64,000 bases of DNA from Candidatus Gastranaerophilales bacterium (GCA_944325025.1 CALUYN010000005.1:14478-78477), one strand, 5' to 3'; shown: positions 1,092-4,404, counted from the first letter of the stretch. The notes: generated from the letters alone by a model not told the origin. Translations and numbers: made by a program.

Positions 1092-1235
1092 TGGTGGGCA
1101 GGGGTGGATTTCTTGCTCGTTCGCGTTTAACAGGTCTACGGTTGTCGTCTGCAATGTCTGTGACATTTTGCCGCCAAGCCTTCGCCTTCAGCTCACTCGC
1201 GCTCGAACCTTTAACAAAGCTTTCGCTTTGTGTGG
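1092..1235 (-). repeat. tRNA-appended element E1 plus duplicated 3' end of tRNA-Tyr
   Basis: 1095-1110 is identical to tRNA-Tyr 3' end 1275-1290, extended by CCA (1092-1094). 1111-1235 is about 90% identical by eye to 3733-3864. Confidence 0.85.
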
Positions 1236-1274
1236 TTCTCATCCATTTTACCTGCAAATTACAAATAAAAAACC

Positions 1275-1357
1275 TGGGCAGGGGTGGATTCGAACCACCG
1301 TAGTCTCGCGACGGCAGATTTACAGTCTGCTCCCTTTAGCCACTCGGGCACCTACCC
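1275..1357 (-). tRNA. tRNA-Tyr(GTA)
   Basis: Cloverleaf: acceptor GGGTAGG/CCTGCCC, anticodon loop CTGTAAA, long variable arm, GGTTCGAATCC; no encoded CCA. Confidence 0.95.
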
Positions 1358-1375
1358 TTATTAAATTTTCAAAAA

Positions 1376-1447
1376 TGCCTTTGACGGGATTTGAACCCGT
1401 GGCCTCTCCCTTACCAAGGGAGTGCGCTACCCCTGCGCCACAAAGGC
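1376..1447 (-). tRNA. tRNA-Thr(GGT)
   Basis: Acceptor GCCTTTG/CAAAGGC, anticodon loop TTGGTAA, T-arm GGTTCAAATCC. Confidence 0.93.
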
Positions 1448-1464
1448 TCAAATGTTTTTCTTTG

Positions 1465-1543
1465 TACCAAGGGAGTGTCTGCTACCCTCCCTCCACTCAA
1501 CAACTCTTAGTTGTTTTGTAGAGCCTTGCCACAAAGGTCAAAT
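1465..1543 (-). pseudogene. Degenerate 5'-half copy of tRNA-Thr(GGT) with a hairpin insertion in the D-arm
   Basis: TACCAAGGGAGTG (1465-1477) and GCCACAAAGG (1528-1537) repeat the neighbouring tRNA; an extra ~40 nt lies between them. Confidence 0.65.
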
Positions 1544-1564
1544 ACTTTATTCTTCATTAAAATT

Positions 1565-1636
1565 AGCCGGCAATAGGAATCGAACCTACAACCTACGGTT
1601 TACAAAACCGTTGCTCTACCATTGAGCTATGCCGGC
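1565..1636 (-). tRNA. tRNA-Thr(TGT)
   Basis: Acceptor GCCGGCA/TGCCGGC, D-arm AGCTCAATGGTAGAGC, anticodon loop TTTGTAA, GGTTCGATTCC. Confidence 0.95.
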
Positions 1637-1739
1637 GTCAGTCACATGTCTTATTCTATTAAGAAAATATTTTAATGTCAAGAGTTTTATTTCTGTTTGA
1701 TTTATAATAGTTTTATAAGTTTAAATTAAGGAAGGAAAA

Positions 1740-2081
1740 ATGATTAGATTTGTTGCCCCTATTTTGTTATTAACAATATCAAATGTATTCATGACATTTG
1801 CATGGTATGGACATCTTAAACATAGATCAGCAGCTTTATGGACTGTTATTTTGATTAGTTGGGGAATAGCTTTCTTTGAATACTGTTTTCAGGTGCCCGC
1901 AAACAGAATTGGAAGCTATGTTTATTCTGCAGCTCAATTAAAGACAATTCAGGAAATAATTACACTTGTTGTGTTTAGTTTCTTTTCAGTATTGTATTTG
2001 AAAGAAGAATTCAAGTGGAATTATCTTGTCGGCTTCATTTTCATAATATTTGCAGCATTTTTTATATTTAAAAAGTGGTAG
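1740..2081 (+). CDS. Small DMT-family membrane protein (DUF486-like)
   Basis: 113 aa with 4 hydrophobic segments; motifs SNVFMTFAWYGHLK, IAFFEYCFQVPANRIG, QLKTIQEIITL. Confidence 0.8.
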   Translation: MIRFVAPILLLTISNVFMTFAWYGHLKHRSAALWTVILISWGIAFFEYCFQVPANRIGSYVYSAAQLKTIQEIITLVVFSFFSVLYLKEEFKWNYLVGFIFIIFAAFFIFKKW

Positions 2082-2085
2082 TTTA

Positions 2086-3693
2086 TTACTTTTCAAAAAT
2101 GAAAACTCTGTAGTATTTCAATTTTACGCCGCTTTTTATTTTCAAGTATTTCTGACAGAGAATAAATGCATCTGCATTCATCTTTGATAAACTTCCTGTC
2201 ATTACCGGAAGTTTTTTGTATTCTTCTAGCGATTTTAAAGGATAAGCGTTATAATTTTCATCCCAAATATAGAAAATTCTGTCGCCAGTGTTCATTGGTT
2301 CAATGACGCGGGAAAGAAAATCTTTCTCAAATTCTGGGGAAAGGCTGTTAATGCTCAGGACATAATCTTTATACTTTTCATATTTATCCTGCTTTGAAGA
2401 ATTCATTGCGTAAGGCTCGTGTACAAAATCCTGCAGCAAACTGAATTTCCTTCCATTGAAATTTATGTATTTATCAAAGTCATTTTTTCTTAGTGCTAGG
2501 ATAATAGTATCATTATCTTTTATATTGTTTGAATTTAATACATTTGCTGTCGGTTTTTCGCCTAAATCCCTGTATCCTCTTACTGCACTTATTGGCGAAG
2601 CTAAAAGATAAAATACGTTTATTATAAGCATATAAGTTATTATTATTTTTATAGTTATGCTTTTTAATTCTGATAGGCCTATACTTACAAGAAGCAGTAA
2701 AGGCGGAATTGCAAGTATGGTATATCTGGTAAGCATTCTCAATCCGCTGTTCATGCATAAAATAGTTTCAAAAATTAAAAATAACAAAGGTAAAACAAGC
2801 AGCAAATAATGTTTTTTGTCTATCCTTACACCTTTATAAATCCCGTAAAATGCAATCCCGACAGGAATATAAATAAATAATATCTGTGTAAAGCCAAGTG
2901 TGGGGATGTAAACTTGCGGATTGTTATAAATTCCTATTAAATACGGTGTGAAATAATTTTGAATTAAAACAAATGTTGTAAAAATATTGCTTGTAAATAT
3001 CCATGCTGCAGCTTCGTATTTGTGCATGTGTGTAAGTATGTATATAGCAAATGGAGAAATTACTCCAATTAATATAAGATTAGCAAGCAAAAATTTCTTT
3101 AAAGTCTGTTTATTTTTCCATAAGATATAAGCTAAGGTGGCAATCCCTTGAGCAATAACGTATAAGACTCCAATTGTAAATGTGTATACAATTGCAGCAT
3201 TTGTGATTATGTATCCCGCATAATCTGTATTTTTGTTGTGTTTTAAAATTCTGGCTATAAAGTATAGTGAAACGGTTGCAAACATTGAAAGAAAAATATA
3301 AAATTTAACTTCCTGTGAATAAAATATGAGGGTTGCATTTATAGCAGTGAGGAATGCAAAAATATTCCCTGTTTTCTCATTTTTTATTTCTTTACCTGTG
3401 AAAAATGCAGCAACAACATTAAGTACTCCTGCCAGGACAGAAAACAACCTAATAGTAATATCACCGTTTCCGAATATTTTTATCCACAAAGCTAGCATTA
3501 ATTGGTAAAGCGGAAAATGAACATCTGCATCAACTGCAGCTTTTATAATATCTAAAGGGCCTCCTGCAATTGTCTGGTTATACATGACCATTTCGTTGTG
3601 CCAGAAACCTGCAGGTTTATCAATGAACAGTACCCTTAAAATTATTGCCAGTACAATAACTAAACCCAAAATAATATAATCTCTCTTCTTCAT
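2086..3693 (-). CDS. GT-C fold membrane glycosyltransferase (GT39/PMT-like)
   Basis: Multi-TM; FWHNE, DVHFPLY, IRLFS and YSQEVKFY motifs. Likely start MKKRDY at 3693; the ORF-track extension runs through element E2. Confidence 0.8.
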   Translation of the reverse strand: MKKRDYIILGLVIVLAIILRVLFIDKPAGFWHNEMVMYNQTIAGGPLDIIKAAVDADVHFPLYQLMLALWIKIFGNGDITIRLFSVLAGVLNVVAAFFTGKEIKNEKTGNIFAFLTAINATLIFYSQEVKFYIFLSMFATVSLYFIARILKHNKNTDYAGYIITNAAIVYTFTIGVLYVIAQGIATLAYILWKNKQTLKKFLLANLILIGVISPFAIYILTHMHKYEAAAWIFTSNIFTTFVLIQNYFTPYLIGIYNNPQVYIPTLGFTQILFIYIPVGIAFYGIYKGVRIDKKHYLLLVLPLLFLIFETILCMNSGLRMLTRYTILAIPPLLLLVSIGLSELKSITIKIIITYMLIINVFYLLASPISAVRGYRDLGEKPTANVLNSNNIKDNDTIILALRKNDFDKYINFNGRKFSLLQDFVHEPYAMNSSKQDKYEKYKDYVLSINSLSPEFEKDFLSRVIEPMNTGDRIFYIWDENYNAYPLKSLEEYKKLPVMTGSLSKMNADAFILCQKYLKIKSGVKLKYYRVFIFEK

Positions 3694-3715
3694 ATATCCC
3701 CTTAATCCTGTTAAA

Positions 3716-3864
3716 AGCGGAAGACGGGACTGTCTTGCTCGTTCGCATTTAACAGGTCTACGGCTGCCGTCTGCAATGTCTTTGACATTTTGCCGCCAAA
3801 CCTCCGCCTTCAGCTCACTCGCGCTCAAACCAATGACAAAGCTTTGCTTTGTGGTTCTCGTCCC
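3716..3864 (-). repeat. tRNA-appended element E2 plus duplicated 3' end of tRNA-Gly(CCC)
   Basis: AGCGGAAGACGGGACT (3716-3731) is identical to 3895-3910; the body is homologous to E1. Confidence 0.85.
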
Positions 3865-3894
3865 TTTTCAACATATTTGTTATTCACTAATAAT

Positions 3895-3966
3895 AGCGGA
3901 AGACGGGACTCGAACCCGCGACGTCAACCTTGGGAAGGTTGCATTCTACCACTGAATTACTTCCGC
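3895..3966 (-). tRNA. tRNA-Gly(CCC)
   Basis: Acceptor GCGGAAG/CTTCCGC, U discriminator, anticodon loop TTCCCAA, GGTTCGAGTCC. Confidence 0.95.
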
Positions 3967-4055
3967 GTTTGTCTTTATTTTATTACAAAAAAATTTTTAT
4001 ACAAATTTTTAATATATCAATTAATTAAAAAGACCCGCCATAAGTTTTTTTTATT

Positions 4056-4218
4056 AGCGGGAGACGAGGCTCGTCTTGGATTTGCTCCACGCTCACGGAG
4101 ACTCACCTTTAAGCCTGCGGCTTAGCCGGCTCGTTCCGTTCGCTATCCGGATTTATTCGCTTCGCTCATGCCATCCGTCCGCAAATCCGCCGAACTGCGC
4201 AATTGGCGAGTTCCTGCC
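4056..4218 (-). repeat. tRNA-appended element E4 (second family) plus duplicated 3' end of tRNA-Gly(GCC)
   Basis: AGCGGGAGACGAGGCTCG (4056-4073) is identical to 4460-4477; GC-rich body bounded by inverted repeat GGATTTGC/GCAAATCC. Confidence 0.8.
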
Positions 4219-4230
4219 ATTATCTCTGTC

Positions 4231-4267
4231 CATAAAAAAGCCCCACCTATGGTGGAGCTTCTTTATG
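4231..4267 (-). terminator. Terminator-like hairpin between E3 and E4
   Basis: CATAAAAAAGCCCCACC-TAT-GGTGGAGCTTCTTTATG; the mismatches become G-U pairs on the minus strand, which has a U tract. Confidence 0.65.
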
Positions 4268-4268
4268 G

Positions 4269-4404
4269 AGCGGGAGACGAGGCTCGTGTCTTGCTCGGTC
4301 GCGTGTAACGGCATTCCGCGTTTTGCTAATGTGATTTTATCTAAATCGCAAAACGCTACAGCCTCAGCTCCCTCGCGCAACTCGCAAAAAAGCTTCATCA
4401 AGCC
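4269..4404 (-). repeat. tRNA-appended element E3 plus duplicated 3' end of tRNA-Gly(GCC)
   Basis: 4269-4286 is identical to 4460-4477. Shares TCTTGCTCGnTCGCGTnTAAC and CAGCTCnCTCGCGC with E1/E2; different internal hairpin. Confidence 0.8.

Follow-up and report, generated by a model that had tools for sequence, protein, structure and literature searches.

In a 64,000-nucleotide (nt) stretch of the genome of a Candidatus Gastranaerophilales bacterium (GCA_944325025.1 CALUYN010000005.1:14478-78477; this whole stretch is the window, and positions are counted from its first letter), the 3′ ends of the genes for tRNA-Tyr, tRNA-Gly(CCC) and tRNA-Gly(GCC) recur downstream as short fragments, some of which carry a CCA that the intact genes lack. 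The CCA-bearing fragments are very probably the original 3′ ends of these genes, moved about 170 bases downstream by small non-coding units. As fragments that are original gene ends and not copies of mature tRNA, they make the CCA pattern an ordinary one. The units themselves form an abundant and poorly understood family that shares the design of the tRNA-linked repeats (TLRs) of Escherichia coli.

Displaced ends of tRNA genes

The genome assembly comprises 1.76 Mb in 43 contigs with 35% G+C. The five tRNA genes that ARAGORN places in the region are all on the minus strand, and sequences are given here in the tRNA sense. The bases that follow the five intact genes are GGT, TTT, AAT, ATT and TAT, and CCA is encoded by none of the five. 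A preliminary description of the window had reported CCA on the Tyr fragment and the inner Gly fragment and its absence from the five genes and from the fragments of the units called E2 and E4; on re-reading of the sequence this proves exact. The features concerned are as follows.

1056..1079, minus: strong intrinsic terminator (terminator scan) behind the Tyr fragment, AAAGAGAGTCCGCAGACTCTCTTT plus a T-run
1092..1094, minus: CCA after the Tyr fragment, the genome-encoded CCA of the original tRNA-Tyr as judged from the empty loci L009 (G067) and L017 (G013)
1095..1110, minus: Tyr fragment, nt 58-73 of tRNA-Tyr (AATCCACCCCTGCCCA), an exact copy of the gene end
1111..1274, minus: E1, TLR-like unit; core scoring 105 bits against covariance model R1, with covariation in the core
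1275..1357, minus: intact tRNA-Tyr(GTA), ending ...AATCCACCCCTGCCCA, then GGT and not CCA (ARAGORN, Rfam tRNA, sequence)
3716..3731, minus: E2 fragment, displaced 3′ end of tRNA-Gly(CCC), AGTCCCGTCTTCCGCT, then TTT and not CCA
3732..3894, minus: E2, nearest relative of E1 (89% over 139 nt, blastn); core 3733-3831, R1 103.6 bits
3895..3966, minus: intact tRNA-Gly(CCC), then ATT
4053..4073, minus: outer Gly-GCC fragment (of E4), nt 56-73, the same 18 nt as the inner one (4056-4073), with the AAT that follows it
4074..4265, minus: E4, older unit of a different sequence family but the same design; blastn relatives on contigs C27, C42 and C25
4266..4268, minus: CCA after the E3 fragment; fragment plus CCA (4266..4286) form the gene end predating E3
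4269..4286, minus: inner Gly-GCC fragment (of E3), CGAGCCTCGTCTCCCGCT, the same 18 nt as the gene end, tRNA nt 56-73
4287..4459, minus: E3, newest unit, adjoining the Gly(GCC) gene; R1 71.7 bits
4460..4531, minus: intact tRNA-Gly(GCC), ending ...CCTCGTCTCCCGCT, then TAT and an element-borne terminator

Exact repeats of 16–18 nt at a spacing of 165–190 nt are not a matter of chance, and the same architecture recurs genome-wide. The layout of gene, element and fragment is found at no fewer than 13 tRNA genes of this genome, among them those for Gly-TCC, Tyr, Gly-CCC, Gly-GCC (two), Asp (two), Lys-TTT, Lys-CTT, Met, Glu-CTC, Leu-TAG and Arg-CCG, and in addition at the tmRNA gene, ssrA.

Relatives that lack the units show what the fragments correspond to. 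A search of the tRNA-Tyr region against 60 genomes of the genus returned, in G067 and G013, two blast pieces whose overlap is exactly the 16-nt repeat, which identifies empty sites. At these loci (L009 and L017, respectively) an intact tRNA-Tyr gene is followed by CCA, an A/T-rich spacer and an orthologous terminator, AAAGAGAGTC...CTCTCTTTTTT. The counterpart of 1095..1110 lies within the intact gene of these element-free relatives, and the hairpin orthologous to the 1056..1079 terminator comes after that gene. The tRNA-Gly(GCC) locus gives the same result one step further on. E3 is missing from G016 and G067, which are otherwise 93–95% identical there, and the intact gene of these genomes (L037 in G016, L042 in G067) is followed by CCATAAAGAAGCTCCACCATAGGTGGGGCTTTTTT, letter-identical to the sequence behind the E3 fragment and comprising the same CCA, terminator and E4. 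The proximal end of E4 itself begins with CCA, which is why the E3 fragment carries one. A third line of evidence comes from G012, which has no copy of the element family: its genes have CCA on Tyr, Gly-GCC and Asp, and TTT with a similar flank on Gly-CCC, in agreement with these four kinds of fragment in our genome. Because element-free relatives carry the intact gene, CCA and the same terminator, the run of fragment, CCA and terminator is read as a former gene end.

The preliminary description had left two interpretations side by side, a displaced CCA-encoding end replaced by a CCA-less trailer from the element, and copying from mature, CCA-tailed tRNA. The first is borne out at Tyr (G067 and G013), at Gly(GCC) (G016 and G067) and in G012, all of which have gene plus CCA. 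The second falls on the same loci, since encoded CCA in the element-free Tyr and Gly orthologues is the result that the description itself had named as speaking against RNA templating; a reverse transcriptase domain (RVT_1) was, moreover, not found in this genome. The tabulation of CCA on genes and fragments that it had proposed is also informative. CCA is encoded by 7 of 38 tRNA genes in this genome, by 9 of the 32 examined in G012 and at 16 of 30 tRNA-Tyr loci of the genus; among ordinary tRNA genes of this lineage the proportion is only about a quarter. Six fragments in the genome carry CCA (Tyr, inner Gly-GCC, both Asp and both ssrA), a rate far above the roughly 1% expected from base composition and about that of ordinary tRNA genes.

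Among the element-bearing tRNA genes of this genome and of G014 and G015, all four combinations of CCA on gene and fragment occur:

fragment only: Arg-CCT, Asp, Gly-GCC
gene only: Gly-GCC in G014, Leu-GAG
gene and fragment: His, Val, Glu-TTC
neither: many loci

CCA is not, then, a property of fragments as such. Nor is it a rule that elements supply CCA-less ends, as some element-bearing genes of the sister genomes keep CCA while their fragments are without it.

These observations suggest the following course of events. The fragment is the old gene end, from nt 58 (or 56) to the discriminator base 73, still joined to its original downstream DNA, namely CCA where the ancestral gene had it and then the gene's own terminator. 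A small non-coding element now stands between the gene body and this old end, as the element-free relatives show, and the intact gene ends in a second copy of nt 58-73 that runs into the trailer and terminator of the element; in this genome that trailer does not start with CCA. New units join beside the gene and push older units and older gene ends outward, as with E3 inside E4. Comparison of the alleles shows the old end displaced, the junction at nucleotide 73|74 and, because relatives have E4 but not E3, a polar order of addition. The outcome resembles that of att-type integration, with the original gene end displaced and the intact gene restored with an element-side flank. Entry may have taken place either by conservative recombination inside the common 58-73 segment (att/Campbell type) or with target-site duplication, such that the proximal 58-73 copy could be element-borne or target-derived. 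Later spread between strains may have been by homologous recombination, and arrays may have grown by unequal crossing-over. Insertions of these units erode genome-encoded CCA. tRNAs without an encoded CCA are completed by CCA-adding enzyme, and the loss would be harmless because most tRNA genes here lack CCA and presumably need that enzyme in any case.

Several points weigh against this account. None of the element-bearing tRNA genes of this genome keeps CCA, compared with about 25% of ordinary genes, a deficit that is mildly more than expected and for which we have no explanation. The outer Gly-GCC fragment is followed by AAT and the Lys-CTT fragment by GAA where G012 has CCA. Precise deletion between the direct repeats could have produced the element-free alleles, which would then not be ancestral, although the reading of CCA would stay the same, and the relatives compared are non-independent samples. 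No enzyme presents itself either: genes for TnpB, Cas1, reverse transcriptase and IS110-type proteins were all looked for in this genome and none was found, and tyrosine recombinase counts do not track element copy number (G015 has 27 copies and 3 tyrosine recombinases, G012 no copies and 9).

Architecture and host matching of the units

The units are about 165–190 nt long and contain no open reading frame (ORF). The 99-nt structured core of E1 (1111-1209), which ends GAGCAAGA, is accompanied by a variable trailer, a 5′ arm ..UGGAU-GAGAACC (about 1228-1243), a small hairpin and the sequence GGTTCGA; the 5′ arm of E1 pairs with fragment positions 59-63. E3 brings a terminator hairpin of its own together with a 5′ arm, ..GUGGC; its core (4289-4385) ends GAGCAAGACA, and immediately to the left of this core stands GCGAGTT, the 5′ strand of the host T-stem plus TT. 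E4 is made up of a terminator, a 5′ arm ..AUGGC-AGGAACUCGC and the end AATCCAAGAC. Together with the units at Gly-TCC, Leu-TAG and Glu-CTC, E4 belongs to other sequence families that have the same ...CAAGA(C/G) end beside nucleotide 58. The terminator hairpins of E3 (window 4425-4455) and of the Leu-GAG unit of G014 (L121) have a common loop, GGACTTTAGTTCTA, on different complementary stems, and the terminator itself is therefore a conserved structured part of the unit.

The 99-nt core has the conserved form GCGCGAGYGAGCWGAGGGCGAAG, a variable hairpin, CCGYAGACCCGTTAAAYGCGARCGAGCAAGAC. Compensatory changes occur in 7 of its 13 predicted pairs, and one G-U pair is invariant, which places the fold on the tRNA-sense strand. 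The covariance model R1 detects the family as follows.

This genome: at least 24 copies
Genomes of the genus: 22 of 24 have it, with 0–54 copies each
Other genomes of the family: present in 45 of 50
Other families of the order: 7 of 9 sampled families
About 100 other genomes of the phylum: none

Outside the order, the R1 search returned no copies in the genomes sampled.

Each unit matches its host tRNA in three places. First, its 3′ tail is nucleotides 58 (or 56) to 73 of that tRNA. Second, the core is bordered immediately on its left by a few nucleotides from the 5′ strand of the T-stem with TT(CGA), for example GCGAGTT (Gly-GCC and Asp), GTGGGTT (Ser tRNAs) and, with a host T-loop of TTCAA, TTCA; overall there are 43 such matches against 30 expected, a value reached by none of 20,000 shuffles. 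Third, the 4–9 nt before a conserved GAUGAGAAC complement tail positions 59-63 and beyond and vary with the host, pairing UGGAU with AUCCA for Tyr and GGGAC with GUCCC for Gly-CCC. In a hand-anchored alignment of 22 units, 81% of the cells of this arm–tail helix are paired compared with 68.5% in shuffles (0 of 500 reaching the observed value), with 22 double-sided changes, and pairing drops to 23–48% when the register is slid. The 5′ arm of the unit is accordingly predicted to pair with the tRNA-derived tail, and it co-varies with the host tRNA.

One further tRNA-derived segment lies in the window, upstream of tRNA-Thr(GGT), where positions 1465-1543 hold a partial copy of the 5′ half of that tRNA with an insert in the D-arm region.

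Spread, cargo and other explanations

Insertion polymorphism of E1 and of E3 is seen between species that are 93–95% identical in the flanks. The nearest relative of a unit often sits at a different tRNA of the same genome, examples at 82% identity being Tyr/Gly-CCC here and Lys-TTT/Met and Asp/Gly-TCC in G014; units of the same tRNA from different genomes are 70–78% identical. The similarity within genomes could be due in part to gene conversion. Plain tandem duplications that include the trailer occur at Met (C18), Leu-TAG (C14), Ser-GGA in G015 and Met in G014.

A unit with protein cargo is present at the tmRNA gene. Here ssrA (ending ...TCTCCACCA) is followed by a gene for a 351-residue protein with Fic/DOC and winged helix-turn-helix (wHTH) domains, beyond which lie an R1 core and a 19-nt repeat, with CCA, of the ssrA 3′ end (L153:1754-3771, corresponding to G000 C29:20753-22770, where G000 is this genome). 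The Fic-domain gene thus lies between the intact gene and the core plus fragment, in a TLR-like unit of 1.6 kb. A second ssrA fragment with the same trailer is found at C24:12376. Upstream of the core copy on C24 are two adjacent large ORFs of 585 and 607 residues (L152:305-3893, C24:8304-11892), for neither of which Pfam gave a match at E<=0.01; they may be the cargo of a decayed ssrA-linked island.

Core copies also occur away from tRNA genes. Core-only copies in sense orientation lie in spacers of a ribosomal-protein operon (G000 C7:334-412, 3903-3985 and 6044-6146), at rplV-rpsC, after rplE and after rplR; G015 has them in the same places, the first confirmed at the same position. They adjoin a REP-like repeat, and no flanking duplication was found at these or at other non-tRNA core copies. 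A subgroup of cores (C13:25060, C32:13091, C2:128594/128881/36322 and C31:6712) is followed by GCCGCTCCACCCGACAC..., part of the REP-like repeat CGTAGCCGCTSCACCC, of which there are 14 copies. At some of these loci a similar copy of the repeat also stands about 55 nt upstream, which resembles the arrangement at tRNA genes but at a non-tRNA target.

Could the units have arisen in place, without insertion? Tandem duplication of the tRNA 3′ end and trailer, by slippage or unequal crossing-over, would carry CCA along with it. Duplications at Met (C18), Leu(TAG) (C14), G015 Ser-GGA and G014 Met take in the trailer and reach as far as the beginning of the following unit, and the E. coli tyrV units do likewise; because trailer-including duplications occur at several loci, arrays do grow by duplication. 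At E1, E2, E3 and Asp, however, the sequences after the gene and after the fragment are wholly different, related cores are found behind various tRNA genes and also away from tRNAs, a Fic gene is present in one unit, and the first unit of an array cannot come from duplication alone. We therefore regard an origin purely in place as very unlikely.

An account in terms of function would have selection keep the CCA on fragments, with the element RNA needing a tRNA-like ...N73-CCA tail as a tRNA mimic. The predicted fold, in which the tail taken from the tRNA is paired with the 5′ arm while the acceptor strand stays single-stranded, is compatible with this, as is the CCA at the end of every E. coli TLR. 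However, most fragments here, including those of E2 and E4, are without CCA, fragments carry it at the same rate as ordinary genes, and encoded CCA would not be needed as CCA-adding enzyme could act after transcription. Selection of this kind is very unlikely to account for the pattern.

Least credible of all is an RNA-templated origin, in which the fragments or the whole distal part were reverse-transcribed from mature CCA-tailed tRNA or from a chimeric RNA and then integrated: CCA on two of the four window fragments and on six in the genome, beside genes without it, would suit such an origin, as would the start of the fragments in the T-loop, where a reverse transcriptase might stall, but CCA and the DNA behind it are collinear with gene, CCA and terminator of element-free relatives, many fragments have no CCA, some genes have CCA while their fragment does not, and the genome has no RVT_1 domain. 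Retro-copied fragments call for an empty site without CCA and an available reverse transcriptase, and the loci and the genome provide neither.

With the displaced-end explanation retained, candidate machineries for the insertion itself were considered in turn. The units of 165–190 nt, being without ORF, encode no tyrosine or serine recombinase, and their distribution does not follow one. A guide-RNA-like transposon end (TnpB/IscB omega-RNA or IS110 bridge RNA) is attractive in that the conserved core stops just before the variable 16-nt flank; it was rejected, as the genome has no TnpB and no IS110 and duplication of the flank is confined to tRNA sites. Target duplication of the casposase type was set aside for lack of Cas1 in the genome, and a retro-element for lack of a reverse transcriptase. 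A phage-type integrase encoded next to tRNA-Arg(TCT) on C21 was considered as a trans-acting enzyme, but its homologues do not track copy number, and G015 and G067 have none. IS91-type insertion after GTTC is incompatible with the junctions, non-tRNA copies without flanking repeat speak against simple target-site duplication as a general property, and among known Rfam families tRNA alone was matched. REP-associated Y1 transposases were rejected as well. Two such genes (IS200/RAYT-like) are present, at G000 C13:11409-11750 and C7:73364-73729, each with its own REP hairpins (GGTGGGA...TCCCACC and GGTTGGGG...CCCCAAC) that are unrelated to the TLR-like core. A literature search for T-loop-targeting elements returned casposon and integrase papers only.

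Relation to known systems

Integration of the casposon or CRISPR-repeat type produces a long target duplication at a tRNA 3′ end and adds new units in a polar manner beside a 'leader'. The units here are similar in that about 16 nt of the tRNA 3′ end stand as a direct repeat on either side of each of them and new units stand beside the gene. They differ in the absence of Cas1 from the genome, in non-tRNA copies without duplication and in the host-matched nucleotides that lie also inside the unit.

Integrase-mediated islands and cis-mobilizable elements insert in the 3′ ends of tRNA and tmRNA genes and leave attL and attR sites with a duplicated 3′ segment, one class having its sublocation in the T-loop. 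As in those systems, there is here a duplicated tRNA 3′ segment with its start in the T-arm, one junction has the restored intact gene and the other the displaced original end, units accrete in a polar manner, and the tmRNA gene is also a target, with a Fic cargo gene. By contrast, the elements here are only about 170 nt long with no encoded integrase, the integrase content of genomes does not track copy number, the T-arm copy is interrupted at the T-loop by a structured core of 99 nt, and close relatives occur at different tRNAs.

The closest counterpart in design is provided by the TLRs of E. coli, of which K-12 has 22 at ten tRNA/rRNA loci, each ending in 18–19 bp of the upstream gene and so far with 'no known function' (PMC8144298). 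The 178-bp repeats of tyrT/tyrV, the RtT/RttR RNA of Rfam RF00391, go back to Egan & Landy 1978 and Rudd 1999, as cited in PMC8144298. In E. coli K-12 tyrT-tyrV (L156:711-1495) each 178-bp unit ends AATCCTTCCCCCACCACCA, that is nt 58-73 plus CCA (19 nt; nt 58-76), and contains GGGGAAGGAUGAGAAGCUUCGACCAAGGUUCGACUCGAGCG, which aligns with the 5′ module of the units described here. As here, T-loop nucleotide 58 is where the part of each RtT unit taken from the tRNA begins, and a unit also lies between tyrT and tyrV.

In both systems units of about 130–180 nt stand directly behind a tRNA gene, sometimes in arrays, have as their tail the last nucleotides of the upstream tRNA from T-loop nucleotide 58, and contain the motif GGAUGAGAAc...GGUUCGA...GAGCG. 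In both, the 5′ arm pairs with the tRNA-derived tail, the helix with which the Rfam RtT consensus closes the RNA. Here too a structured, RNA-like module on the tRNA-sense strand is predicted, with a few host T-stem nucleotides left of the core. Judged by the features that define TLRs, the units stand immediately downstream of the gene at the 13 or more tRNA genes and ssrA, including E1–E4 in the window, and their 3′ ends are identical to the upstream gene end over 16–18 nt, or 19–21 nt with CCA, against 18–19 bp in E. coli. TLRs are also defined by transcription with the tRNA operon and processing from that transcript, for which the strand-specific fold with its conserved G-U pair would be an indirect indication here. 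The closing arm–tail helix of RtT is present on the hand-anchored alignment, as is GGAUGAGAA after the arm, a motif shared in the alignment with the E. coli units. RF00391 gave no match to window 900-4700 at E<=1 or to 1050-1300 (251 nt) at E<=10, compared with 133–137 bits for the E. coli units and a gathering score of 45 bits, and R1 in turn did not detect the E. coli units. As each model misses the units of the other, we class the units here as TLR-like by architecture and not as members of RF00391.

It is possible, though to our minds doubtful, that TLRs are widespread mobile elements able to form cassettes, structured RNAs or folded single-stranded DNAs whose arm and tail match the T-arm and acceptor end of one tRNA and would guide the unit into the 3′ end of the matching tRNA or tmRNA gene through a host or still unrecognised recombinase, with cargo such as the Fic gene possible. 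If so, the Gastranaerophilales family, with its 0–54 polymorphic copies per genome, would be the first system for studying the mobility and targeting of TLRs. The CCA pattern, which displaced gene ends explain, is itself of little weight, a by-product of insertion beside the discriminator base.

The two families also differ. The core here is longer and built differently, and the host is not an enterobacterium but a member of the Gastranaerophilales, non-photosynthetic relatives of cyanobacteria. Copies are far more numerous here and vary in number, encoded CCA is missing from most host genes with the result that gene and fragment can differ, the units bring their own terminator, one has a protein gene, and copies occur also away from tRNAs. 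The E. coli TLRs have been without a known function or origin for over 45 years (since 1978). In this distant lineage a large, diverse and insertion-polymorphic family has the same design, with empty and filled alleles, polar stacking and one cargo unit, and the covariation of arm and host tRNA together with this set of alleles offers comparative material on how TLRs arise and what their RNA does.

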